From assembly GCF_000027125.1 (NCBI RefSeq), contig NC_017627.1: a stretch of DNA of 64,000 bases, one strand, 5' to 3'. The position numbers and the translations under genes were made by a program. This DNA is from Escherichia coli 042 (GTDB taxonomy: Bacteria; Pseudomonadota; Gammaproteobacteria; Enterobacterales; Enterobacteriaceae). Positions 5,501-53,890 of the stretch are shown in pieces. Numbering within the stretch: position 1 is the stretch's first letter; each line of letters begins with the position of its first letter. Below the pieces are notes generated by a model that saw nothing but the letters and a program-made list of their open reading frames with translations, was not told the origin of the DNA and searched no databases.

Positions 5501-7835
5501 CGGGCGTTTCCACCCAGCCGTTCTCCAGCTTCAGTGCCGTGAACGGTGAATCGCTCACAGGCAGGGAGGCCGGTTCAGCCCGCCCCGGCACAACAACCGT
5601 CATCGCATCTTCACTGACGGATGCCACCTGCAGGCGGTCACCGCCGGAGACGCGGAGTCCGGGAATTTTCCCTGTCACCCTCAGTCGCTCGCCGTCTGCC
5701 ACCGGCATTTTTTCCGGCCGGAACAGCGACCAGCTGCTGTCCAGGGAGGAAATACGCACCACCTGCGTTTCGCCCTGCGCATCCCGCAGGGTCAGGCTGT
5801 GACTCTGCGCTGTCACCCGGTCTATCACATAGCGGTCATGACTGCGTGTCTCCGGGTTCCACTGCTCCATCACCATCCCCGGTCGGTACATATCCCGCAG
5901 ATAACGGCTCCGGCTGTCCAGCCAGACCGGTGACAGTGCAGTCATGGTCACCTCAGGGTGTCCGAGCACGCCCTGCGTTTTCAGCTCACTGCGAATGGCC
6001 TGTGTCAGTATGGCCTGTTCCCGTACCCCGCTGACCTGTGCCACGCTCTCTTCTCCGGCTTTCACGCTGGCCGCAAAATCTCCGGCCAGCCGGGCATAGC
6101 GGACATTACGGTCCGGTTCACTGATGATGGTGGCCGGTCGCTGTTCTCCGCCCTGCCAGCGATATGTGTTCACCCCGGCATCCTTCATGGCCATCAGCGC
6201 ACTGCCTGTACCGGTTCGCTGCCCGCTGTCGGTTATCAGGACCTGTACGTTATGACGTGCGGCACCGTCCAGCAGGGTTAACGTCTCTTTCAGGGAGAGT
6301 TTTTCGCCCTGGTCGACGATAACAGTACTGCCCGGCGTGAAGGCCATGCCCTCCTGCAGCTGACGACGTCCGGTTATCAGCTCACCGGACAGCCGTTCAT
6401 CCTGCTTCAGGTTCATCTGCGAGCGACGGTCAGCGGCGATAATCTGCATCTCCCGCCCCTGCTCCCGGGCCATCATGACCAGTTCAGCCACCCGCTCACG
6501 CTGCCCGGCTGCACCGCCCTGCCCGGAAACAATGGCCAGCGACGGACGGTCCTGTGCCAGAACACTGACCGCATCGCTGTAACCAGCCGTCCGGGGGACA
6601 CTTTTCTCCGGATGTACGGTCACCCGGTTCTGTTTCATGATGTCACGACTGAGTGCCCGGACGGACAGCTCATCGAGCACATGAATTCCTGATGTGAACA
6701 GCCCCTTCTCACGGTCGAGGGGGATAAGCTGCTCACGACTGATGGCCTCATCGATACCGGCGCGTGCCCGTTCAATCACACCATTTTCCGGCGGCAGTAT
6801 ACCGACCGTTCTGGCCAGCACGTCCGTGTACGTAAACTGCACTTTTCGTTCACTTAATCCGGCAATGGCCTGTGTCACCGCCTGCTGCACATCCGGCCCC
6901 TCCTGTGAAACAGCCCCGGGCGCCTGCGTGTGGGTCTCCGCACGCTGATCCGCCGCGTCACGATATGCCCGGATGTCGAACCCGGTTTCCTTCAGCGTCT
7001 GCATCCATTCAGCCATTCTGACTTCAGGATCGACGTGCTGTTTGGATTTTCGCGTATCCAGTGCCGCCACATCCCGGGATTTCAGTGAGGCCCCTTCACC
7101 GACGGCCTCCCGGATAGCCTGTGAGCGTCCGGAGAAGGCTTCCACCGGTACGCCCGGCATCTCCCACATACCGTGCTTACCGACCACTTCGGTTTCATAG
7201 CCCAGTGCCTCAACCTGCTCTTTCAGTTTTTCCCGGTAGAGCCTGCCAAAGGCAATCTGATTAGCGTACACATTCTCAATGAACCCCGTTTTCCCCACTT
7301 TGTCACTGCTCAGTGTCTTCCACTCACCGTTATGCTGCGTGACATTAGCCACCACCGCATGCGTGTGTAACTGTGGTTCCTGATCGCGACTGGTGTCGTG
7401 GTTAAACAGTGCCATCACCAGATTACCGGTCAGTACCGTTTCTGACTGTCCGTCCGTCATCACCCGTGTGGAGGCCAGCGCCTCCACCTGACGAACAGCA
7501 AAGTCCACGGCCTGGTTATGTGCATCAATCAGGCGCTTATCGCCACCTAACATGGCCATCATGGAGACACTTTTGGGGGCGGAGAAGGTCAGGTCGTAGC
7601 CGGGACGATGCTTATTACTGCCATCCTGCATGCGGCTTAGATCCGCTCCGTCCGGCAGCCTTCCCTCCAGAAGACGGGTAAAAACATCCTTATCGACACT
7701 GCCCTGCAGTCCCAGCTGTTCAGCCCCCCTGCCGGCCCAGCGTTCTCCCATGCTGCCCAGTACATAGTAATTATCCTTGTCGGTATAATAGTTACCGGCA
7801 CTTCCGGCCGATCTGACCTGCGCGATACTCATCAT
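2565..7835 (-). CDS. traI: TraI relaxase/helicase
   Basis: 1756 aa, same length as F TraI; N-terminal relaxase region, helicase Walker A GYAGVGKT, long C-terminal domain. Confidence 0.97.
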   Translation of the reverse strand: MMSIAQVRSAGSAGNYYTDKDNYYVLGSMGERWAGRGAEQLGLQGSVDKDVFTRLLEGRLPDGADLSRMQDGSNKHRPGYDLTFSAPKSVSMMAMLGGDKRLIDAHNQAVDFAVRQVEALASTRVMTDGQSETVLTGNLVMALFNHDTSRDQEPQLHTHAVVANVTQHNGEWKTLSSDKVGKTGFIENVYANQIAFGRLYREKLKEQVEALGYETEVVGKHGMWEMPGVPVEAFSGRSQAIREAVGEGASLKSRDVAALDTRKSKQHVDPEVRMAEWMQTLKETGFDIRAYRDAADQRAETHTQAPGAVSQEGPDVQQAVTQAIAGLSERKVQFTYTDVLARTVGILPPENGVIERARAGIDEAISREQLIPLDREKGLFTSGIHVLDELSVRALSRDIMKQNRVTVHPEKSVPRTAGYSDAVSVLAQDRPSLAIVSGQGGAAGQRERVAELVMMAREQGREMQIIAADRRSQMNLKQDERLSGELITGRRQLQEGMAFTPGSTVIVDQGEKLSLKETLTLLDGAARHNVQVLITDSGQRTGTGSALMAMKDAGVNTYRWQGGEQRPATIISEPDRNVRYARLAGDFAASVKAGEESVAQVSGVREQAILTQAIRSELKTQGVLGHPEVTMTALSPVWLDSRSRYLRDMYRPGMVMEQWNPETRSHDRYVIDRVTAQSHSLTLRDAQGETQVVRISSLDSSWSLFRPEKMPVADGERLRVTGKIPGLRVSGGDRLQVASVSEDAMTVVVPGRAEPASLPVSDSPFTALKLENGWVETPGHSVSDSATVFASVTQMAMDNATLNGLARSGRDVRLYSSLDETRTAEKLARHPSFTVVSEQIKARAGETSLETAISLQKAGLHTPAHQAIHLALPVLESKNLAFSMVDLLTEAKSFAAEGTGFTELGGEINAQIKRGDLLYVDVAKGYGTGLLVSRASYEAEKSILRHILEGKEAVTPLMERVPGELMEKLTSGQRAATRMILETSDRFTVVQGYAGVGKTTQFRAVMSAVNMLPASERPRVVGLGPTHRAVGEMRSAGVDAQTLASFLHDTQLQQRSGETPDFSNTLFLLDESSMVGNTDMARAYALIAAGGGRAVASGDTDQLQAIAPGQPFRLQQTRSAADVVIMKEIVRQTPELREAVYSLINRDVERALSGLESVKPSQVPRLEGAWAPEHSVTEFSHSQEAKLAEAQQKAMLKGEAFPDVPMTLYEAIVRDYTGRTPEAREQTLIVTHLNEDRRVLNSMIHDAREKAGELGKEQVMVPVLNTANIRDGELRRLSTWENNPDALALVDNVYHRIAGVSKDDGLITLQDAEGNTRLISPREAVAEGVTLYTPDTIRVGTGDRMRFTKSDRERGYVANSVWTVTAVSGDSVTLSDGQQTRVIRPGQERAEQHIDLAYAITAHGAQGASETFAIALEGTEGNRKLMAGFESAYVALSRMKQHVQVYTDNRQGWTDAINNAVQKGTAHDVFEPKPDREVMNAERLFSTARELRDVAAGRAVLRQAGLAGGDSPARFIAPGRKYPQPYVALPAFDRNGRSAGIWLNPLTTDDGNGLRGFSGEGRVKGSGDAQFVALQGSRNGESLLADNMQDGVRIARDNPDSGVVVRIAGEGRPWNPGAITGGRVWGDIPDNSVQPGAGNGEPVTAEVLAQRQAEEAIRRETERRADEIVRKMAENKPDLPDGKTEQAVREIAGQERDRTATSERETALPESVLRESQREREAVREVARENLLQERLQQMERDMVRDLQKEKTLGGD

Positions 7836-34009: not shown

Positions 34010-34430
34010 ATGTATACCTCTTTATTTTCTTATCGAATCAAATTTATTTCACATATAAAAAAATGACAATTCATCGATGAATCGAATCGTGACGCAAGTT
34101 ACGAAAATTACGATTCATGCAGCAAATCACATCACGAATTGAATCTAGAGTCAATTCGCTTTAACTCGTTGTTTTATTATTACTGATTCATCTATGAGTT
34201 GCGTTAAATTCATTGGTGAATCATATGCGATTCACCAATGAATCCTTTTTATAATGTAAAATAAATTAAAATACATTATTTAAAACATAAGTTAATGATT
34301 CAAATAGCAAATCAGCAAAAACTTGTTTTTGCGTGGGGTGTGGTGCTTTTGGTGGTGAGAACCACCAACCTGTTGAGCCTTTTTGTGGAGTGGGTTAAAT
34401 TATTTACGGATAAAGTCACCAGAGGTGGAA
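34010..34430 (+). promoter_or_regulatory. oriT: oriT (origin of transfer); nic site predicted between 34341 and 34342 on the plus strand
   Basis: F-type nic motif GTGGGGTGT/GGTGCTTTT at 34333-34350 between traM and orf169; AT-rich region 34020-34300. Confidence 0.85.
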
Positions 34431-34432
34431 AA

Positions 34433-34942
34433 ATGAAAAAATGGATGTTAGCAATCTGCCTGATGTTTATAAATGGGATCTGCGAAGCCGCCGATTGCTT
34501 TGATCTTGCAGGTCGGGATTACAAAATAGACCCGGATTTACTGAGAGCGATATCATGGAAAGAATCCCGTTACCGGGTTAATGCCATCGGTATTAATCCG
34601 GTAACGGGATATGGCAGCGGACTGATGCAGGTAGATTCCCAGCATTTTAACGAACTGGCCCGCTATGGAATTAAGCCGGAACATCTGACAACAGATCCCT
34701 GCATGAACATTTATACCGGTGCTTATTATCTGGCAATAGCCTTTAAAAAATGGGGCGTCTCCTGGGAGGCCGTTGGTGCATACAATGCCGGATTCAGGAA
34801 GACCGAACGCCAGAACCAGAGACGTCTTACCTACGCATCAGAGGTTTACCGGATTTATACCTGGATAAAGAGCAGTAAAGGCATCCGGGTTCCGACCACG
34901 AAGAAATCACTTTCCCAAATTAACAGTGTGCAGAACAATTAA
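34433..34942 (+). CDS. Orf169 / gene X lytic transglycosylase-like leading-region protein
   Basis: 169 aa from [19 protein letters not shown]; soluble lytic transglycosylase-like [10 protein letters not shown]...GLMQV. Confidence 0.9.
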
Positions 34943-35200
34943 TATTGTATACATTGTCAAATACCGGTTATGCCGCGACAGCGGCATGGAAGGCCACACA
35001 CAAAAATATCATATGAGTGATAATGCTGACTGGCCGAAGCCCCGCAAAGCGGGACCCCATCTTATATATATCCGGTAACTGCACAGCCTCCTGCCAGACC
35101 ATTTTTCGCGGGCACAATATTTACAGACTACCGAAAAGCCAGTTGATGAAATTGAGGCATATCAGACGACACAGCAATGCCGCAGGATGATAATATAAGT

Positions 35201-35228
35201 AAAGCCCCGAAAAATTTTTCGGGGCTTT
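35201..35228. terminator. Bidirectional hairpin terminator between convergent orf169 and the yubP-like gene
   Basis: aaagccccgaaaaatttttcggggcttt. Confidence 0.5.
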
Positions 35229-35238
35229 ACTTATATTA

Positions 35239-36060
35239 TCATGACTTCCACTCCCTGAACTGTTCGGCAATCATCCATAATGCTTTGTTGATTCGGATAT
35301 CACCGTCAATGCCTGTAATGGCTCTTGTTCTGGTATTTTTACCGGAGGCACTTCGCCCCGATAATCCACCTTTTATCATATTCTCCTGAACCCGCTGCCA
35401 AGTTGTCCAGAGATCGTTCTGTTTATCCTCCCAACGGCGGGGAGTAATTATTTGTTCTGGCGTCACTGGCGTTTTATTTTCATCTTCGTACCTAGCCATC
35501 AATGCAGCTCTGCCAAATAAATGTTGTTCGTCACTGTTAAGATGTATCTCTTTCATTGTCTCCATATTTTCAGTGACTTTATCAAAGACACCGAGCACTT
35601 CATACGCTCCCTCAATAACCTGCCCGACAATATCACCTTTATGTGGAACGCGGATTTCGCCAAAATTATTCCCACACACCAGGCCATTTGTGCAGACAAA
35701 ACGAAAAATTCCTGGGATCATCTGATAACTGGATGAACCATCATGTGAATTAAGCAGGATAATTTCAGGAACTTCTTTCCCGTTAATATGCCCTTCCCTG
35801 CGAAGACGTAACATATGTTTACTGTATTCGCGGCGTCCCAAATCACGAACCCGACTCTGACAGGCAAAGAACGGCTGGAAACCTTCATCACGTAACTTAT
35901 TGATGATATTGATGGTTGGGATATATGTATAACGCTCACTCCGGGATTCATGTTTATCACCAGAAAAGACAGATGGAACAAACTGCATTAATTCGTCATC
36001 CGTTAACGGGCGCTCACGGCGAATAGAATTATATCGACCAAAACGGGAAGCTAATCGCAT
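35239..36060 (-). CDS. Conserved leading-region protein (YubP-like, 273 aa)
   Basis: 273 aa ORF next to orf169; family assignment from memory of F leading-region gene order. Confidence 0.7.
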   Translation of the reverse strand: MRLASRFGRYNSIRRERPLTDDELMQFVPSVFSGDKHESRSERYTYIPTINIINKLRDEGFQPFFACQSRVRDLGRREYSKHMLRLRREGHINGKEVPEIILLNSHDGSSSYQMIPGIFRFVCTNGLVCGNNFGEIRVPHKGDIVGQVIEGAYEVLGVFDKVTENMETMKEIHLNSDEQHLFGRAALMARYEDENKTPVTPEQIITPRRWEDKQNDLWTTWQRVQENMIKGGLSGRSASGKNTRTRAITGIDGDIRINKALWMIAEQFREWKS

Positions 36061-36170
36061 AACAGTAACTCCTTTATGAAGGCATAAAATTAATAAAATT
36101 TTTTTCGCTTAATATCATCCCCCCTCGGTTATCGTTAACAAAAAGACAACAATTCCGAGGGGAAGGACCA

Positions 36171-36467: not shown

Positions 36468-36483
36468 AATTCCTCCTGTATCT

Positions 36484-36944
36484 GATGTTTTCAGCCCCCA
36501 TCATCTGTTGAGTTTCGGGAGCCGCGGTTTTGACGTTTTGCGGGGACCTGCCTTTTGTTCCCTCCGGTATTCACCATCACCTGTTTGAGAACCTTCGCCG
36601 CAAGGGGCATCACTGCCACGGCCTGACGCACCTGTCCTGGGCAGAACGCAAAATTTTTTACCGGGTTTTAGGTAAAAAATTTTGTGGTCTGTTCATTTAC
36701 CCTGGACAGTCAGTGCGGCAGGTTGTGGCTGTATCAGCCCCCGGCGACAGGGGCTTAAACAGGTGAATGGCACCGGACACAACAACGGGCAGGGACCCGC
36801 CGCAACGACGTGAAGCGCGGTTTGCGAAACGGCGTTGCGCCTTACATCCCGGCGGCCTTTTGCCGGGATGCCAGGAGCGCAGGCCACGGCGCGACAGAGG
36901 CGGCGCGACCGGAACGGTCGCTGCAAGCCCGGGGTTTCGCGTCA
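36484..36944. repeat. Frpo-like repeat A (putative single-stranded DNA promoter element)
   Basis: Near-identical to 42053-42506 and 45451-45900; internal palindromes such as aaaattttttaccgggttttaggtaaaaaatttt. Confidence 0.7.
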
Positions 36945-37316
36945 GGGATGGAAGCCCGCCAGGGGGACGCCCGGAAAAGACACTGCCAGGAGAACAACAA
37001 AACAGACAATAATCAGGGCAGCAGTAATCAGAGTCAGAACAGGAGGAAAAAGAGAATAATCAAAGGGAAGGTGATGTGATTTCTGACAGGTCATAAACAG
37101 AGAAGGCGGGGGAAAAGAACGGGCGCCGCAGGCGCGCGTTCTTCCCCGTTCCCGGAGGGAAACGGCCTTCCTGGCAGTCTGGTTGTTCATGCCCGCACAA
37201 TGCCAGCAAGGAGAAAGGGGCCACCGGCGAACCAGCAGCCCCTTTATAAAGGCGCTTCAGTGCAGTCAGACCAGCATCATCCCTGAAAAGGCGGGCCTGC
37301 GCCCGCCTCCAGGTTG

Positions 37317-42052: not shown

Positions 42053-42690
42053 TGATGTTTTCAGCCCCCATCATCTGTTGAGTTTCGGGAGCCGCGGTTT
42101 TGACGTTTTGCGGGGACCTGCCTTTTGTTCCCTCCGGTATTCACCATCACCTGTTTGAGAACCTTCGCCGCAAGGGGCATCACTGCCACGGCCTGACGCA
42201 CCTGTCCTGGGCAGAACGCAAAATTTTTTACCGGGTTTTGGGTAAAAAATTTTGTGGGCTGTTCATTTACCCTGGACAGTCAGTGCGGCAGGTTGTGGCT
42301 GTATCAGCCCCCGGCGACAGGGGCTTAAACAGGTGAATGGCACCGGACAGAACAACGGGCAGGGACCCGCCGCAACGACGTGAAGCGCGGTTTGCGAAAC
42401 GGCGTTGCGCCTTACATCCTGGCGGCCTTTTGCCGGGATGCCGGGAGCGCAGGCCACGGCGCGACAGAGGCGGCGCGACCGGAACGGTCGCTGCAAGCCC
42501 GGGGTTTTCACGCATCGGACCGTAGCGACAGCCCGAAACCGCGCCAGCGGGTTCGGCGGAGACTGGCGGGTGCGCCAGCAGCTGCCTGTCGGAGTCGGGC
42601 CTGACGACCGGATGCCGCCAGGCAGCCGGGAGCCGAAGGTGCGCCCGGCAGACAGGACAACACTGCAGTAGTCAGAATCAGAGCGGCAGG
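42053..42690. repeat. Frpo-like repeat B, immediately upstream of ssb
   Basis: Near-identical to repeat A over about 450 bp and to repeat C over about 600 bp. Confidence 0.7.
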
Positions 42691-42700
42691 AAAAAGAAGA

Positions 42701-42784
<84 letters not shown>

Positions 42785-42961
42785 ACAACAACATCATCAG
42801 TAACAGACAAATGACAGGTCTGAAAAGACAGAAGCCCCCATCAGAACGTCCGCGTAATGAAAGGGGCGGCGCGTGAGCGCGGCCCCTTTCAGCGCCACCG
42901 GCGCGCGGTCTTTTCCCGGCGCGGACAGACGGGCATTTATCCTCCCGCCAGCCCTGTGTCA

Positions 42962-43525
42962 TCAGGCACGCAAACGAATAATCATCGTCGGGACATCGGT
43001 ATAAGCAAACGTGCCGCGCGGCAGCTCCTCGCGGATGTCAGAAAACGGTAACAGCTTCTCCTGCTGGCGCGGCCCGTTCAGACAGACGGCAACCAGCACG
43101 CCCCCCGGACGCAACAGGGAAAAAGCCCGCAGGATATGCCGGATATCCTGCCCGTGGATGAACGGCGGATTCATAATGATCCGGCTGTAATACTGCACCG
43201 GCTGCCATTCCATGAAGTCGCCACACTGTACCCTGACACCGTTAAAATTTTCCCGCAGATACCGGACCAGCCCGCTGTTAATCTCCACCGCATCACACAT
43301 GGCCTCCGGCGCGGTATCCCGAATCGCCCGCAGTATGGCCCCGGTGCCGGCAGAGGGTTCCAGAATGTGATCACGGTTGCTGATTTCCGCCAGCGTCACC
43401 AGGCGATCACAGACCGGGGCAGGACTCACAAAAAGCTGAGATTCAGCCCGGATTTCAGCAACCGGCGCGGCGTTATCCAGCCTTGCGCGCATCAGCCGGA
43501 TACGTTCTCTTAACTGACTGTGCAT
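42962..43525 (-). CDS. Small orphan SAM-dependent N6-adenine DNA methyltransferase-like protein
   Basis: 187 aa; motif I-like EPSAGTGAI followed by NPPF (motif IV); no adjacent restriction gene. Confidence 0.75.
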   Translation of the reverse strand: MHSQLRERIRLMRARLDNAAPVAEIRAESQLFVSPAPVCDRLVTLAEISNRDHILEPSAGTGAILRAIRDTAPEAMCDAVEINSGLVRYLRENFNGVRVQCGDFMEWQPVQYYSRIIMNPPFIHGQDIRHILRAFSLLRPGGVLVAVCLNGPRQQEKLLPFSDIREELPRGTFAYTDVPTMIIRLRA

Positions 43526-45215: not shown

Positions 45216-45450
45216 AAATGCATCCTTATGACTGTTGACTGGAGCCGCAAAAACTGTTCGTGCAGTCTCTGCAGCATGGATTAAGCAGGTTCCTGACCTG
45301 CTTTTTTCATATCTGCATCTGACGCTTTCCGGTGTTTTCCTCCTTCTGTTCCTGCGTTCTCATTACCTGCCAGCCGGATGACTGACAGAACACATAAATG
45401 CGTATTGCCGGAGCCTGAAATAAATCCTGATTTTTAAAGAACATCACCCG

Positions 45451-46060
45451 TTGAGTTTCGGGAGCCGCGGTTTTGACGTTTCGCGGGAACCTGCTGCTGT
45501 ATTCCCTGTGGTATGAACTTCACCCGTTTGAGAACCTTCGCCGCAAGGGGCATCACTGCCACGGCCTGACGCACCTGTCCTGGGCAGAACGCAAAATTTT
45601 TTACCGGGTTTTGGGTAAAAATTTTTGTGGGTTGTTCATTTACCCTGGACAGTCAGTGCGGCAGGTTGTGGCTGTATCAGCCCCCGGCGACAGGGACTCA
45701 TACGGGTGTGTGGCACCCGGCAGGCAATGAGCAGGGGCCCGCTGCAACGACGAAGAGCGCGTGCGCGAAACGGCGTTGCGCCTTACATTCCGGCGGCCTT
45801 TTGCCGGGATGCCGGGAGCGCAGGCCACGGCGCGACAGAGGCGGCGCGACCGGAACGGTCGCTGCAAGCCGGGGGTTTTCACGCATCGGACCGTAGCGAC
45901 AGCCCGAAACCGCGCCAGCGGGTTCGGCGGAGACTGGCGGGTGCGCCAGCAGCTGCCTGTCGGAGTCGGGCCTGACGACCGGATGCCGCCAGGCAGCCGG
46001 GAGCCGAAGGTGCGTCCGGCAGACAGAACAACACTGCAGTAGTCAGAATCAGAGCAGCAG
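45451..46060. repeat. Frpo-like repeat C
   Basis: Shares about 600 bp with repeat B including the tail ...cactgcagtagtcagaatcagag. Confidence 0.7.
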
Positions 46061-46247
46061 ATAAAGGAACAACAACATCAGGAACAGTTCCATAACATAA
46101 GAAAGAAACACTCCTGAGTCAGACACATCACAGACGGGAAGGGTAACGGGCGACGCGCCAGCGTGGCCCGCTTCCCTTCCGGCAGGCGTCAGCCTGCCAG
46201 GGGTTTTCGCGCGGGCTGACAGGCGGCCTCCACCGCCTGCCCCTGTA

Positions 46248-46439
46248 TCACCTGTTTCTGCTGCCCTGTAAGATGTAGTGACCGCCCAGGAAAACCGCCT
46301 GCTGATTCGCCACAAAATCGCAGATTTCATCAACAATCTGCGCGGTGGTGAGCGGTTTCTGCCCCATTTCACGACGCCGCGCATTAATCACGGCCCTGTA
46401 ATTACGCAGAATTTCGCGGGTTTCCGTGCTGATATTCAT
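46248..46439 (-). CDS. Small hypothetical protein (63 aa)
   Basis: ORF overlapping the stop of the upstream gene by 4 bp (operon-like). Confidence 0.35.
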   Translation of the reverse strand: MNISTETREILRNYRAVINARRREMGQKPLTTAQIVDEICDFVANQQAVFLGGHYILQGSRNR

Positions 46440-46858
46440 GACATCGTCTCCCCGTCCAGCGCCTGCAACACAACGTCCATTGCTTCGCGTTCCTCCCTGA
46501 CGAATGCGTCACCGTCGCCCCCGTTCTCACTCCCGACGGCATACAGGCGCTTCATTTCACTGCCTGCCAGCGCCATCACTTTTTCCAGCATCACCGCCGG
46601 GACTGTCACCTGACGGCTGGCGTGCTTTTCCTCCATCAGTTCACGAACAACGTCGTGAACAACGCTGACATCCGCACCATGCTCAAAGGCATCGTCCAGC
46701 CGCTGCATGACGGTTTCCAGCTCATCGTCTGTCAGACTCCAGTCCTGGGCTATGTGACGCACATCCCCACGAGTCAGCACCACGGCAAAAACGCATTCAC
46801 TGTCCGGCACGTCTGTATCCAGCACTTCGCGGATAATTTCTTTAACAGTACAGTACAT
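46436..46858 (-). CDS. Hypothetical leading-region protein (140 aa), paralog of 48561-48995
   Basis: Shares MY.T...E...RQVTVPA..L pattern with the 144-aa ORF. Confidence 0.5.
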   Translation of the reverse strand: MYCTVKEIIREVLDTDVPDSECVFAVVLTRGDVRHIAQDWSLTDDELETVMQRLDDAFEHGADVSVVHDVVRELMEEKHASRQVTVPAVMLEKVMALAGSEMKRLYAVGSENGGDGDAFVREEREAMDVVLQALDGETMS

Positions 46859-46904
46859 GTTCTCGTCTCCTTTACAGGGGCGGCATTGCCGCCCCGTCCG
46901 TTAA

Positions 46905-47330
46905 TCAGTCCAGCGCCGCATAAATCGCGTTACATTCGGGGTGAAATTCGATGTGGCTCCACAACTGCGCATCGCGCATCCTGTACAGGTGAGTCAGCCC
47001 TGCGCTACCGCTGTCGTGGTACAGCCACAACTGGCGGTTAATCACAAGGGAGGTCAGGATGATGCCTGCGGCATCAGCACTCACGGTACGGTCAAACCAG
47101 TTTTCACCGTTAACCAGATGAAAACGGTCGCCATCCGGCATCATGTAACCGCCACCGTCCGGCAGGCGGATGAAGTGCCAGAATCCGCCTTCATATTCCG
47201 GCATCATTTTTTTCGCCAGCGCGTACACAGATGCCTCGGCATACAGAAAATCCAGGCCAAACAGGTAAGGCAGAAAGGAGAGACGGTCGCACTCTTCAAC
47301 ATTCAGAGTGACAGGTTTCGCATATTGCAT
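46905..47330 (-). CDS. klcA: KlcA/ArdB-family anti-restriction protein
   Basis: 141 aa [25 protein letters not shown]...[21 protein letters not shown] resembling KlcA/ArdB. Confidence 0.8.
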
Positions 47331-47366
47331 GATGTTTTCCTCCGTTGTTCACATATTCCGCGACAC

Positions 47367-47600
47367 CGGGCGGTGCCGTGCCTCCATCTTTGCCGGGCCT
47401 GCAGGGTTGCAAGGGCGCAAGGGAAGCCGCAGCCTGACGCACACGGCTGGCGGGAGTTGGAGGGTGAGACCGCGAAATCTGAGCGGGTGAACGACCGGAA
47501 AATCACGGCAGACGGGAAGGAGGGACCGGGTGACCGCAGCGGTTCACCTTACCTTGCAACCCGCCCGCAGAAGCCCGGCTACGATGGAGGCACGGCACAG
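47367..47600. promoter_or_regulatory. Long imperfect inverted repeat (about 230-nt hairpin) upstream of klcA; candidate ssDNA promoter distinct from the Frpo-like repeats
   Basis: Arms 47367-47415 and 47548-47600 are reverse complements (ccgtgcctccatc / gatggaggcacgg; gggttgcaagg / ccttgcaaccc). Confidence 0.45.
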
Positions 47601-47745
47601 CCCGCACACGACGCTGAGGCCACATAACTGAAAACCCACAAGGCCATGCCCCGCATGGCCGGGTAAAGCGGAGCCTGCGGCGACATCCTTTTGCTCTTTC
47701 CGGGGACCGGCTGGAAAAGGCGGAGATTTTTCCCCGCCAGCGTCA

Positions 47746-48561
47746 TCATTTCCGGATTTTCGCCAGTGCATCCGCCATGCTGCGGATTTCATCCCGTGCC
47801 TCCAGAACAACCTCCCGCAGAATATCCCGGTCAAACCAGCGACGGGACGGTTCATCCGGTATACGCAGCACATCACAGACCAGACCACTGGACAGGATAT
47901 GCTCCACACACTCACTGACCAGATACATTTCCACCGCCGAAAAACGTGCTCCCCGGTTCAGGATAGCATCGAGCACCACGGGCAGATTTTCGTCATCTTC
48001 ATCAAGCCAGCAGGGGTAATCGCTTTCCTTCACAACCAGACGAAAGCGGCGCGTCTGGCGGGTCAGCAACGTCTGACCGGTGGTGGTCAGCGCCGCACGG
48101 ATACGCCGCGCATCTTCTGCCACCCGGCAACTGACACTGCATACTGCATCGCGCACCGCATCAAGAACCGCCCTGATTTCTTCCTCCGTCAGCCATTCAC
48201 CGGCATACGGGAAAGACACCTGCGTTCCGTCTGCCGGAAGTACCGGCAGCGACTGCCACTGACTGCCGGACAGAACAAGTTCCGCTCCGGTTCCGGTCAG
48301 TTTCTGAATGGCAGAGGCCAGGAGCGGCGGCAGTACGCCGCCGTGACGGTTGATAAGTAACGTCGCCAGCCGGGGCGCATCCAGCCGCACGTAAATGCTG
48401 ATCCAGCCCGGATAGTGCGGATTCAGTTGTTCAATATCCGTCTCTTCCGGCCAGCCCTGCGCCAGCAGCAGGTTACGGGCGTGGCGATAAACCAGTGCAT
48501 TCAGCGTTTTGTTCATGATTAATGGTCTCCCTGAATCGCCGCCCGAAAGCGGCGATAACAT
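47746..48561 (-). CDS. Hypothetical leading-region protein (271 aa)
   Basis: ORF contiguous with the upstream 144-aa ORF (stop/start adjacency). Confidence 0.5.
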
Positions 48562-48995
48562 CAGTCGTTTTCGTGTGTGTTGTTTTTCAGCAGGGCGCGG
48601 GCCTGATTAACCACCGCCTGACGGCGGGTGACACATTCCGGGACGGCGAGGCCATGATCCCGGGCGGCCCATTCACGTTTCCACAGTGCCTGTTCGGCGG
48701 TCTGAATCAGGGACGCCAGCAGTTCAGCCGGGACGGTCACCTGGCGGTTTTCTCTCACGTTATTGATGATCTCCATCGCCACGCCGGAAGAAATACCGGA
48801 TTCAGTCCGCTGGTCTTCCGGGATGTCCTCCAGGCGCGCCAGGACAGTCCTGATTTCATGATCGGACAGGGAAATATCCATTCCGTCAGCGAGGGCCTGA
48901 ATTTCTTCCGGGGACCAGATAACCAGCATCAGCGGCGTGTCTCCCGGATACTGCGCTGCCAGCTCCCGGCATAGCGTTTCGCATGTTCCGTACAT
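48561..48995 (-). CDS. Hypothetical leading-region protein (144 aa), paralog of 46436-46858
   Basis: Conserved [10 protein letters not shown] motif and N-terminal MY.TCE. Confidence 0.5.
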
Positions 48996-49008
48996 TCTCG
49001 TCTCCTTC

Positions 49009-49230
49009 TCAATCTTTGAAGCAGGAATCCAGTTCCAGAATTTCGGTATACGCCTCCATGAACAGGCGATTGGCGCGATACAGCGTCTGGCGTGTCAGGC
49101 GTTCAACAAGCACATCGGAATCAAAGCGACAGCGATGCTCCATATCGTTCAGCCTGGCCCGAAGGTCACACATGGTGTTGGCCACCTCCGCCACGTCGGC
49201 GCGAAGTTTTTCGTGTCCGGCATAGTTCAT
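49009..49230 (-). CDS. Small hypothetical protein (73 aa)
   Basis: ORF directly downstream of the methyltransferase gene. Confidence 0.35.
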   Translation of the reverse strand: MNYAGHEKLRADVAEVANTMCDLRARLNDMEHRCRFDSDVLVERLTRQTLYRANRLFMEAYTEILELDSCFKD

Positions 49231-49914
49231 TTACGCAGCCTCCGGTTCAAACCAGTTATCATTCGCGGCCCCCTGCTGCATGGCCCGTTGCACGGCGGCC
49301 AGTCGTTGCTGTCCGGCACGGTGATACTGTTCAAGCAGCTCGATACCGATATACCGGCGTCCGGACTGAAGGGCGGCGACGCAGGTTGAGCCGCTGCCTG
49401 CAAACGGGTCCAGCACAATCGCGTTCGGGTGTGTGAAGCTCTCAATCAGCGGTTGCAGGCTGGTAACGGGCTTTTCAGTCGGGTGATGACGATTGCCTGA
49501 ATATTTCCAGCCCAGCACGTCGGGCAATGGCTTCTGAGGCAGCGCCGGACGTCCTTTTGCCAGGATGTAGGCGCATTCGTGGCGATAGCCCACATATGCG
49601 GCCTTCGATGTGTAGGTTTTGGTAAACACCAGGTGGCCAACCACGCTGAATCCCGCATTTTTCCAGGCGGCCATAAAGCGATCGACGCGGTTCCAGCCAT
49701 AGAAGCTCACCATTAACGCGTCTTTTTTGAGTACGCGGTACATTTCATTACAGGCTGGTTGCAGCCATTCATCGGTTTTATCGCCGGCGATGGTGCGCCC
49801 GGAACGGTCACGGAAACCGACGAGATACGGCGGGTCGGTGAGGATGAAATCGACAGCATTGCCCGGAAACGTGGCCATAACACGCACGCAGTCACCCAGG
49901 ATAAAACGGGACAT
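49231..49914 (-). CDS. Orphan DNA adenine methyltransferase-like protein (beta-class amino-MTase motif order)
   Basis: 227 aa; DPPY motif (ILTDPPYLVGF) N-terminal and FxGxG-type DPFAGSGST C-terminal; no cognate endonuclease nearby. Confidence 0.85.
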   Translation of the reverse strand: MSRFILGDCVRVMATFPGNAVDFILTDPPYLVGFRDRSGRTIAGDKTDEWLQPACNEMYRVLKKDALMVSFYGWNRVDRFMAAWKNAGFSVVGHLVFTKTYTSKAAYVGYRHECAYILAKGRPALPQKPLPDVLGWKYSGNRHHPTEKPVTSLQPLIESFTHPNAIVLDPFAGSGSTCVAALQSGRRYIGIELLEQYHRAGQQRLAAVQRAMQQGAANDNWFEPEAA

Positions 49915-50249
49915 AACAGCACTCCTTCTCTTACAGAGGGCACCGGGAGGGCACCCCTGTGGTGCCCGTTCCCCGCTGCCTGTGGGCTGTTCACCGCGTC
50001 CGGTAACGGGTCAGGCCGACCGTGGAATACCGCAGCCGTCGTCTTTTTGACGGCAAGGCTATGCCGCGAAAGCGGCTTGAAGGGCGTTCATCAGAAAAGG
50101 GCTCCCGGCTGGCGTACACTGTCACCAACGCCAGCCGGGAGCGGTAAAAGCGCCCGTCCCGTGCCCGGCCGGACGCGGGACACTGACCACAGGCAGCGTT
50201 CCTGCCGCGCCGCGTCAGCCGGCGCAGTAAAAAGAGGAGCCCGGCGACA

Positions 50250-50431
50250 TCTTTTGTCACCCGCCAAACAAAACCCAAAAACAACCCACACCCAACCCAA
50301 TAAAACACCAAAACAAGACAAACAATCATTGATTGATGGTTAAAATGGGGTAAACTTGACAAATAAACCCACTTAAAACCCAAAACATACCCAAATACAC
50401 ACCAAAAAAAACACCATAAGGAGTTTTATAA
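50250..50431 (+). promoter_or_regulatory. parC: parC-like centromere/promoter region upstream of parM
   Basis: A/C-rich repeated motifs (aaaccc, acccaa, aaaaca) upstream of the parM RBS. Confidence 0.55.
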
Positions 50432-51394
50432 ATGTTGGTATTCATTGATGACGGTTCAACAAACATCAAACTACAGTGGCAGGAAAGCGACGGAACAATT
50501 AAACAGCACATTAGCCCGAACAGCTTCAAACGCGAGTGGGCAGTCTCTTTTGGTGATAAAAAGGTCTTTAACTACACACTGAACGGCGAACAGTATTCAT
50601 TTGATCCAATCAGCCCGGATGCTGTAGTCACAACCAATATCGCATGGCAATACAGCGACGTTAATGTCGTTGCGGTGCATCACGCCTTACTGACCAGTGG
50701 TCTGCCGGTAAGCGAAGTGGATATTGTTTGCACACTTCCTCTGACAGAGTATTACGACAGGAATAACCAACCCAATACGGAAAATATTGAGCGTAAGAAA
50801 GCAAACTTCCGGAAAAAAATTATATTAAATGGTGGGGATACATTCACAATAAAAGATGTAAAAGTCATGCCTGAATCTATACCAGCAGGTTATGAAGCTC
50901 TACAAGAACTGGATGAGTTAGATTCTTTATTAATTATAGACCTCGGGGGCACCACATTAGATATTTCTCAGGTAATGGGGAAATTATCAGGGATCAGTAA
51001 AATATACGGAGACTCATCTCTTGGTGTATCTCTGGTCACATCTGCAGTAAAAGATGCACTTTCTCTTGCGAGAACAAAAGGAAGTAGCTATCTTGCTGAC
51101 GATATAATTATTCACAGAAAAGACAACAACTATCTGAAGCAACGAATTAATGATGAGAACAAAATATCAATAGTCACCGAAGCAATGAATGAAGCACTTC
51201 GTAAACTTGAGCAACGTGTATTAAATACGCTCAATGAATTTTCTGGTTATACGCATGTTATGGTTATAGGCGGTGGCGCAGAATTAATATGCGATGCAGT
51301 AAAAAAACACACACAGATTCGTGATGAACGTTTTTTCAAAACCAATAACTCTCAATATGATTTAGTTAACGGTATGTATCTCATAGGTAATTAA
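50432..51394 (+). CDS. parM: ParM (StbA) actin-like partition ATPase
   Basis: 320 aa [32 protein letters not shown]..., essentially R1 ParM. Confidence 0.97.
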
Positions 51395-51396
51395 TA

Positions 51397-51747
51397 ATGG
51401 ACAAGCGCAGAACCATTGCCTTCAAACTAAATCCAGATGTAAATCAAACAGATAAAATTGTTTGTGATACACTGGACAGTATCCCGCAAGGGGAACGCAG
51501 CCGCCTTAACCGGGCCGCACTGACGGCAGGTCTGGCCTTATACAGACAAGATCCCAGGGCCCCTTTCCTTTTATGTGAACTGCTGACGAAAGAAACCACA
51601 TTTTCAGATATCGTGAATATATTGAGATCGCTATTTCCAAAAGAGATGGCCGATTTTAATTCTTCAATAGTCACTCAATCCTCTTCACAACAAGAGCAAA
51701 AAAGTAATGAAGAGACCAAAAAAAATGCGATGAAGCTAATAAATTAA
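51397..51747 (+). CDS. parR: ParR (StbB) centromere-binding protein
   Basis: 116 aa MDKRRTIAFKLNPDVNQTDKIV... Confidence 0.95.
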   Translation: MDKRRTIAFKLNPDVNQTDKIVCDTLDSIPQGERSRLNRAALTAGLALYRQDPRAPFLLCELLTKETTFSDIVNILRSLFPKEMADFNSSIVTQSSSQQEQKSNEETKKNAMKLIN

Positions 51748-53594: not shown

Positions 53595-53890
53595 TGAGCG
53601 TCGCCGCGATTGAGACGCGCCGCAGCATACTGCTCACCGGCTGGTGTGTACTGGCAGCGATCGTGCTGGCGCTGGTGATCGCTGTGGGCGTCAGCGTTGG
53701 CGAGCTGGCCATCCCGCTGCAGAATGTCTTTTATGCTATCAGCAACAGAACCGGCTTAACCGCTGAGCCGCTCAACCGTATCTATGAGAGCGTTATCTGG
53801 GATTTCCGCCTCAGCCGCGCGCTGGTCGCCGCCTGCTGCGGCGCCGGCCTCGCTATCTGCGGTGTTGTGCTGCAAAGCTTGCCGGCATGA
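53594..53890 (+). pseudogene. FecCD-family ABC permease, N-terminal fragment only
   Basis: 98-aa ORF with permease-like N-terminus that switches frame at about 53887 into an ATPase C-terminus. Confidence 0.6.

Follow-up and report, generated by a model that had tools for sequence, protein, structure and literature searches.

Which functions are carried by the small genes that surround klcA on an IncF-type conjugative plasmid? The question is raised by a stretch of 64,000 nucleotides (nt) from Escherichia coli 042 (contig NC_017627.1; hereafter the window), in which five open reading frames (ORFs), designated orf73, orf144, orf271, orf140 and orf63, flank the gene of a KlcA/ArdB anti-restriction protein. 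On the basis of the letters of the DNA, the original prediction had proposed that these ORFs encode uncharacterised anti-defence or establishment proteins. The five ORFs are real genes under purifying selection. By sequence comparison, they are the leading-region genes yubE, yubF (ycgB), yubG (ychA) and yubJ (ycjA) of plasmid F and the gene for 63 amino acids (aa) that follows yubJ. They form the tails of two operons, headed by a DNA methylase gene and by klcA, respectively. Their products stand about an even chance of being binding proteins that help the plasmid survive entry against host defence or DNA-processing proteins.

Two operons behind hairpins in the leading region

The genes of the two operons, the hairpins that precede them and the putative nick site are arranged in the window as follows:

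34336-34346, + strand: F-type nic-like sequence GGGTGTGGTGC, between the tra genes and the leading region
46248-46439, - strand: orf63, 63 aa, last gene of the second operon
46436-46858, - strand: orf140, YubJ/YcjA, 140 aa (ORF listing)
46905-47330, - strand: KlcA/ArdB anti-restriction protein (PDB 2KMG KlcA, 5.5e-18; 2WJ9 ArdB, 4.5e-9; phrog_10132)
47367-47604, + strand (transferred strand): ssp2-type (class 2) hairpin, an inverted repeat upstream of klcA; fold z = -5.3
47746-48561, - strand: orf271, YchA/YubG, open frame; likely gene 47746-48516, 256 aa; last gene of the first operon
48561-48995, - strand: orf144, YubF/YcgB, 144 aa (ORF listing)
49009-49230, - strand: orf73, YubE family, 73 aa (ORF listing)
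49231-49914, - strand: orphan N6/N4 DNA methyltransferase of the M.EcoGIX / PRK13699 type (NCBIfam NF010253, 5e-150)
49974-50198, + strand (transferred strand): ssp3-type (class 3) hairpin, an inverted repeat upstream of the methylase operon

The first operon follows the ssp3-type hairpin and reads M.EcoGIX-like methylase-yubE-yubF-ychA; the second follows the ssp2-type hairpin and reads klcA/ardB-yubJ-orf63. The start of orf73 directly abuts the stop codon of the methylase gene, the stop of orf144 overlaps the long YchA frame by 1 nt, and the start of orf63 overlaps the stop of orf140 by 4 nt. ORFs of 375-418 aa in which DUF1380 (the family of orf144, see below) is fused to YchA recur in databases; they are mostly singletons, as frameshifts at the 1-nt overlap predict.

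All five ORFs lie on the - strand at the positions originally given for them, as the ORF listing confirmed, and each starts with ATG behind a Shine-Dalgarno sequence. For orf271 the frame stood but its start did not: the gene most likely begins at the 16th codon (48516), which carries a Shine-Dalgarno sequence, is the start used in RefSeq and is the position at which all homologues down to 23% identity begin. The five proteins share 89-98% amino-acid identity with the copies on plasmid F, and the ratios of nonsynonymous to synonymous substitution rates (dN/dS) against F are 0.28, 0.26, 0.21, 0.17 and, for orf63, 0.05, the values of the two shortest ORFs resting on a handful of substitutions. 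The reference values against F are 0.09 for the methylase, which is 98% identical in amino acids, and 0.11 for klcA. Because of the Shine-Dalgarno sequences and ATG starts, the low dN/dS, their spread and the kept gene order, the five ORFs are taken as genes rather than chance frames.

The block is widespread. The region 46000-49950 shares 99.7% identity with plasmid pChi7122-2 of E. coli, and of the 72,556 plasmids in PLSDB at least 5000 carry the block with an identity of 90% or higher; among the matches listed, most carriers are conjugative plasmids of the IncF type, from Escherichia, Klebsiella, Salmonella and Shigella. The exact protein sequences of all five ORFs are found in public databases on 125 to >1000 contigs, under the names 'hypothetical protein', 'Plasmid protein', 'DUF1380 family protein' and 'YchA'. 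Thus, the description of these genes as unannotated does not hold, since RefSeq lists them as 'hypothetical protein' or 'DUF1380 family protein'. The block is 93.4% identical to positions 53825-57962 of F, which has the same gene order, the same or nearly the same gene lengths, both upstream hairpins and the same methylase and KlcA/ArdB neighbours. Alternative names on F are ycgB, ychA, ycjA, yfcA/B, yfdA and yffB, with yfgB for KlcA/ArdB; the 'yfhA' of a 2023 PNAS paper is a ParB-like gene and is none of the five ORFs. The same seven-gene architecture is seen on pESBL, a plasmid with an IncI1 backbone, where hp9, hp10, hp11/ychA, klcA/ardB, hp12 and hp13 lie downstream of M.EcoGIX; the corresponding ORFs are 73, 144, 258, 141, 140 and 63 aa long, a correspondence judged from the published table and not from an alignment. 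Hp11 was originally annotated as YchA in the transposon insertion sequencing (Tn-seq) study of pESBL.

The tra genes occupy 1.2-33.5 kb on the - strand. The nic-like motif by itself is not significant (as many matches or more arise in 18 of 100 shuffled sequences); it is accepted because of its position and because 34309-36153 is 93.7% identical to the oriT side of F. From this site onward, window and F leading region are collinear. These comparisons support the + strand as the transferred strand, entering from 34.3 kb toward higher coordinates. With the nic-like site on the + strand and the genes on the - strand, it is the transferred strand that serves as their template. At 11.9-14.9 kb from the nic-like site, the five ORFs would be reached after approx. 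15-19 s of transfer at the rate of F, which is roughly 790 nt/s (2026 preprint on F). Because of this distance and their orientation, the five genes are expected to enter early, and both their position and their orientation on the transferred strand (T-strand) place them within the leading region as delimited by Samuel et al. 2024 (the first ~28 ORFs after oriT). The leading-region context claimed in the original prediction is thereby borne out, as are the single-stranded DNA (ssDNA) promoter-like elements. Each operon is directly preceded by a long conserved stem-loop of the transferred strand, with a z-score of -5.3 for the ssp2-type hairpin and of -9.0 for the fold of 49915-50330, which holds the ssp3-type hairpin; both thus fold much more stably than shuffled sequence. 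In an alignment of seven loci (the window, F and five far more distant plasmid fragments) that covers the intergenic regions upstream of ardB or ardA, 21 of the 48 predicted pairs of the ssp2-type hairpin keep pairing through changes on both sides. For the ssp3-type hairpin, aligned between the window, F and the diverged contigs L009, L013 and L014 (four distinct sequences), pairing-preserving changes on both sides affect 21/99 predicted pairs. By this analysis, the two hairpins correspond to the ssDNA promoters of class 2 (ssp2) and class 3 (ssp3) that were reported in 2025.

The 3' arm of the ssp2-type hairpin contains a -35-like TTGCAA (47554-47559) and a -10-like TACGAT (47580-47585), both read from the sequence. 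By the same reading, TTGCAx and TAAGAT/TACGAT-like hexamers are kept in the seven loci, with mismatches at the -10 box; the putative spacer between them measures 20 nt in the window, against 15 nt in the six other loci. The inner stem in the window (47395-47420, 47547-47580) has been replaced relative to F and the five other loci and still pairs. Promoter strength or roadblock behaviour of this variant may therefore differ from that of F. Mechanical ORFs are also present on the - strand at 49991-50383, over the ssp3-type hairpin, and at 46049-46384, in the spacer beyond orf63. At the former site, RefSeq annotates a 97-aa 'hypothetical protein' in pChi7122-2 and F; the ORF is probably not a gene, because it lies largely inside the structurally conserved hairpin.

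Early expression of these operons has been demonstrated on related plasmids. On pESBL, the start sites of the class 2 and class 3 promoters were mapped by rapid amplification of 5' ends (5'RACE), and the operons are zygotically induced, as RNA sequencing showed (2025 ssDNA-promoter work). For F, RNA sequencing of transconjugants revealed an enrichment of transcripts from both the klcA and the M.EcoGIX operon. Induction on F and pESBL occurs within minutes and then declines, which the authors explain by ssDNA promoters becoming inactive once the DNA is double-stranded. According to the 2026 preprint, ssp2 of F is both a promoter and a roadblock that stalls complementary-strand synthesis. Its deletion lowers transfer by 21-fold to undetectable levels in four wild E. 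coli strains, causes a 36-fold loss against the type II system EcoGIII and a 5-fold loss against EcoKI, has no effect in isogenic K-12 matings and decreases PsiB about 2-fold. In the same work, conversion of F to double-stranded DNA was unaffected by rifampicin, and the authors state that what each leading gene does is yet to be established. The Tn-seq study of pESBL assigned Hp9-Hp13 a score of 1.00 ('non-essential') throughout; all seven genes are dispensable for maintenance and laboratory transfer.

Protein families and their neighbourhoods in diverged plasmids

The original prediction had found no assignable motif in the five proteins. This stands for function, as none could be assigned; for families it does not, since DUF1380 was recognised twice and the YubE family PF27407 once. 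In particular, residues 1-136 of orf144 match positions 1-137 of the 137-position Pfam model PF07128 (DUF1380) at 6.4e-55. orf140 is 31% identical to orf144 over 111 aa (BLASTP, expect value E 1e-10) and gives a weak, partial match to PF07128 (2.6e-4, residues 1-99) and a match to phrog_9024 (1.4e-5); by these similarities it is a DUF1380 paralogue of orf144, and its C-terminal 40 residues have no confident alignment to DUF1380. Both paralogues are very acidic, with a net charge of -10 and an isoelectric point (pI) of 4.71 for orf144 and of -18 and 4.35 for orf140. orf73 matches phrog_4830 and has no match in the PDB or in the Pfam release used, which does not contain the PF27407 model. It is placed in PF27407 because 73-aa proteins from the same operon slot that carry this annotation (YubE) are homologous to it over the full length (41-56% identity, E 3e-15 to 5e-26). 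The product of orf63 is a small basic protein (pI 9.8, charge +3) that belongs to no family found, with no DNA-binding family among its profile matches.

Structure prediction was informative for one protein. The model of YchA (also called YubG and NgrC) is confident, with a predicted local distance difference test score (pLDDT) of 91, and fold comparison found no structural relative. The AlphaFold2 model of orf144 is all-helical and too poor to interpret (pLDDT 63, predicted template modelling score 0.37). Apart from Pfam families of unknown function, the five proteins have no match in Pfam, and none in NCBIfam, PHROGs of known function, PADLOC, PDB or BFVD; these searches, with single proteins as well as with profiles, revealed no enzyme family, no catalytic motif and no housekeeping fold. 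Assignment to a housekeeping or structural family, which was to have counted against an anti-defence role, was thus obtained for none of the five by family, profile or structure searches.

Several apparent relationships were discarded. A domain shared by YchA and DUF1380, suggested by a 'W-L-T-E-E-E-I' type motif in both, was rejected at an hhalign probability of 0.8%; an internal duplication of YchA, whose secondary structure repeats, is unproven, with an hhalign probability of only 5.5%; and DUF1380 as a relative of ArdA was rejected at 0.2%. The PHROG matches of YchA suggested an occurrence in phages, which was rejected since 0 INPHARED records encode YchA. A 757-aa 'homologue' with nine matched stretches proved to be a repetitive, unrelated protein.

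The DUF1380 pair resembles the DNA mimics ArdA and Ocr in being small, very acidic and made early from a leading-region ssDNA promoter, and class-2 hairpins precede ardA in other plasmids. By composition alone, orf140 and orf144 both have the charge expected of a DNA mimic; in contrast, the pair has no sequence similarity to ArdA. KlcA/ArdB (PF03230; PDB 2KMG, 2WJ9) is a co-transcribed, mildly acidic anti-restriction neighbour of similar size, and no homology of the five ORFs to it was found in profile and PDB sequence comparisons.

Gene order was compared in contigs that encode YchA homologues at 23-41% identity and represent eight independent diverged neighbourhoods. In every sufficiently long contig, the YchA gene lies 170-475 nt upstream of ardB (PF03230) or ardA (PF07275), with nothing or one small ORF between, and it is found in the context of the plasmid genes stbAB, sopAB or umuDC. 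The whole methylase-YubE-DUF1380-YchA operon is kept in L009, L013 and L014, and the order is preserved where YchA is only 38-40% identical. Co-occurrence across leading regions had been suggested as a check; the association with ardA/ardB and, in three loci, with the methylase recurs in diverged plasmids. Homologues of orf63 (47-60% identity) close operons that start with ArdB (L009, L013) or ArdA (L003, L004), and orf140-like genes (38-45% identity) follow ArdB in L005, L006 and L013. These associations vary: L009 has ArdB-orf63, and L003 and L004 have ArdA-orf63, without DUF1380, and L007 has YchA-ArdB-ArdA without DUF1380 and without orf63. In the same plasmid pairs, the methylase is 85-88% identical compared with 41-56% for YubE, 32-56% for DUF1380 and 38-40% for YchA. 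Such faster divergence of the accessory genes would be expected for proteins that track variable host targets.

Local duplication was seen in L013, an Enterobacterales plasmid contig, where tandem YchA paralogues (5799-6602 and 7001-7789; 39% and 25% identical to YchA of the window) lie between the methylase operon and ardB, and two DUF1380-type genes follow ardB. On the basis of these paired copies, the YchA and DUF1380 families both expand by local duplication. In L003 (3608-4078) and L005 (6443-6913), which lack methylase-YubE-DUF1380, a 156-aa protein is encoded immediately before the YchA-like gene. A small module may be common to this protein and DUF1380, since its C-terminal part aligns weakly (hhalign probability 54%, E 1.3e-4) with the ~55 N-terminal residues of that family.

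Candidate functions of the five products

In the proposed mechanism, a class-3 hairpin promoter on the incoming single strand would drive expression of the M.EcoGIX-like methylase, YubE, DUF1380 and YchA, and a class-2 hairpin promoter on the same strand would drive that of KlcA/ArdB, the DUF1380 paralogue and orf63. The products, presumably non-enzymatic, would bind host defence or DNA-processing proteins as the plasmid enters the cell, with the very acidic DUF1380 paralogues as the best inhibitor candidates, acting alongside the methylase and ArdB. Such early genes would be conditionally useful, favouring establishment where host defences are active.

The five genes, the context of early expression and the anti-defence hypothesis are already known from the literature. 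Samuel et al. 2024 (Nature) clustered leading-region genes across 21,907 elements; the families YcgB/DUF1380, YchA, 'Cytoplasmic'/YfcA and YcjA/YcgC/PF07128 rank 7, 10, 11 and 14 by size, and 'Plasmid'/YffA is family 6, to which orf63 probably belongs, judging from position and names. The matching families are oriented on the T-strand, have median positions of 15-20 from oriT and are marked uncharacterised, and the authors regard such uncharacterised families as probably anti-defence; their study, too, detected no resemblance in sequence or structure to known anti-CRISPR or anti-restriction proteins, the entry for nearly all members against these two sets being 'NA'. Literature searches retrieved neither a characterisation of any of the five genes nor a defence-inhibition experiment with any of them. 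The present analysis adds the orphan fold predicted for YchA, the hairpin covariation across distant plasmids, the link of orf63 to ArdA or ArdB, the unequal divergence of accessory genes and methylase, and the variant ssp2-type hairpin of the window. The counterparts on F and pESBL are among the first genes to be switched on after such plasmids reach a fresh host. Should one of the five proteins disarm a host defence, it would shed light on the host range of the plasmids that chiefly spread antibiotic resistance, and on their success, and would provide inhibitor folds not seen before.

A number of observations weigh against binding proteins directed at host defence or DNA processing. None of the five proteins has sequence or structural likeness to a known anti-CRISPR or anti-restriction protein, their description as non-enzymatic rests on absence of evidence, and the DUF1380 model (pLDDT 63) is too poor to judge the fold. 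No phenotype in any experiment is tied to a single one of the five genes, and the phenotype of the ssp2 deletion may stem entirely from KlcA/ArdB together with reduced downstream expression. The data on induction, start sites and deletion come from F and pESBL, not from the window plasmid, whose ssp2-type hairpin differs from that of F in the -35 region. Moreover, the unequal divergence could reflect recombination mosaics and not an arms race.

The proteins might instead be dedicated partners or regulators of their neighbours, with DUF1380 modulating or chaperoning the methylase and ArdB and orf63 acting as a nucleic-acid-binding regulator. The presence of one DUF1380 paralogue per operon beside an anti-restriction function (two after ArdB in L013), the position of orf63-like genes, which always close an operon headed by ArdA or ArdB, and the repeated occurrence of DUF1380-YchA fusion ORFs in databases are all consistent with such a role. 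However, the partners are not obligatory, as DUF1380 is missing from the ArdB-orf63 operon of L009 and the ArdA-orf63 operons of L003 and L004, and L007 has YchA-ArdB-ArdA with neither partner, the fusions are mostly the singletons that frameshifts at the 1-nt overlap would give, and orf63 matches no DNA-binding family. Cloned ardB/klcA and M.EcoGIX are, furthermore, active alone, which also counts against dedicated partners, and this explanation is considered rather unlikely. Less probable still are DNA-processing establishment factors unrelated to defence, that is, proteins for strand protection, priming, conversion, recircularisation or the tuning of SOS or the cell cycle. Among the neighbouring leading-region genes, ssb, psiB and a ParB-like gene have products that act on ssDNA or the SOS response, and the adjacent ssp2 hairpin controls complementary-strand synthesis; nevertheless, the rifampicin-insensitive conversion of F means that this step does not depend on fresh synthesis of a plasmid protein, insertions in the corresponding genes of pESBL leave transfer and maintenance unaffected, and the ssp2 deletion is without effect when donor and recipient are isogenic K-12.

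The opposite charges (-18 and +3) of an acidic upstream and a basic downstream protein and the 4-nt overlap of their genes are reminiscent of a toxin-antitoxin or addiction pair formed by orf140 and orf63, and toxin-antitoxin genes are enriched in leading regions (Samuel et al. 2024). Such a pair is very improbable, given that Hp12, the putative antitoxin counterpart on pESBL, tolerates insertions (score 1.00), that orf63 homologues occur without a DUF1380 gene in L009, L003 and L004, and that no toxin or antitoxin family was matched. Finally, the lack of a laboratory Tn-seq phenotype and of recognised domains of known function would fit decaying or functionless passengers kept by linkage to klcA and the methylase gene. 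This least credible of the alternatives is already contradicted by the conservation data: dN/dS is 0.05-0.28, Shine-Dalgarno sequences and start codons are intact, lengths are the same or nearly so in F and match pESBL by its table, gene order is kept down to 38% identity, and YchA is predicted to fold confidently.

Within the preferred reading of binding proteins that aid plasmid entry, a narrower claim, that at least one of the five is a new kind of anti-defence effector without known relatives, is possible, though clearly less probable. The most attractive case is the tail of the ssp2 operon, with orf140 and possibly orf63. To our knowledge, ArdB/KlcA has been shown to counter only type I systems; the tail is put forward because silencing of this operon in F costs 36-fold against EcoGIII, a type II system. 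YchA would be the second candidate, as a confidently predicted orphan fold encoded just upstream of the ardA/ardB operon.

Other features of the window

On the oriT side of the block, further elements of the leading region are found:

42962-43525: second S-adenosylmethionine-dependent methyltransferase, 187 aa, nearer oriT than the block
45442-46064, + strand: Frpo-type copy, 95-97% identical to the copy at 42069-42693 and 93% identical to the element that precedes ssb in F

Both the DNA methylase upstream of klcA and this second methyltransferase had been named in the original prediction as companions of the block, and both were recovered. The Frpo-type (class 1) ssDNA-promoter repeat, 450-620 nt long, is present in three copies (~36473-36967, 42057-42693 and 45442-46064), in contrast to two on F, one upstream of ssb and one nearer oriT. 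The copy at 45442-46064 bounds the block on its oriT side and heads an orf76-DUF3560-methyltransferase operon. On F, orf63 is followed directly by ssb, whereas in the window this extra operon lies between them together with the third Frpo-type copy; the operon and its Frpo-type promoter look like an inserted or duplicated module.

Three repeat-rich regions lie outside the block. Tandem repeats of 3 and 12 nt, (AGCAGT)n followed by (AGCAGG)n, occupy 42676-42807 between an Frpo-type copy and the gene of the 187-aa methyltransferase and could form a length-variable tract. Short A/C-rich direct repeats at 50260-50422, just upstream of parM/stbA (50432-51394) and stbB (51397-51747), look like a partition centromere at the far end of the leading region. 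Region 60140-63300 holds a head-to-tail array with a period of 1239 bp, made up of two complete 296-aa transposase ORFs of the IS3 family and a shorter ORF of 200 aa; this array adjoins a truncated IS256-family transposase and the IncFII repA gene (57971-58840).

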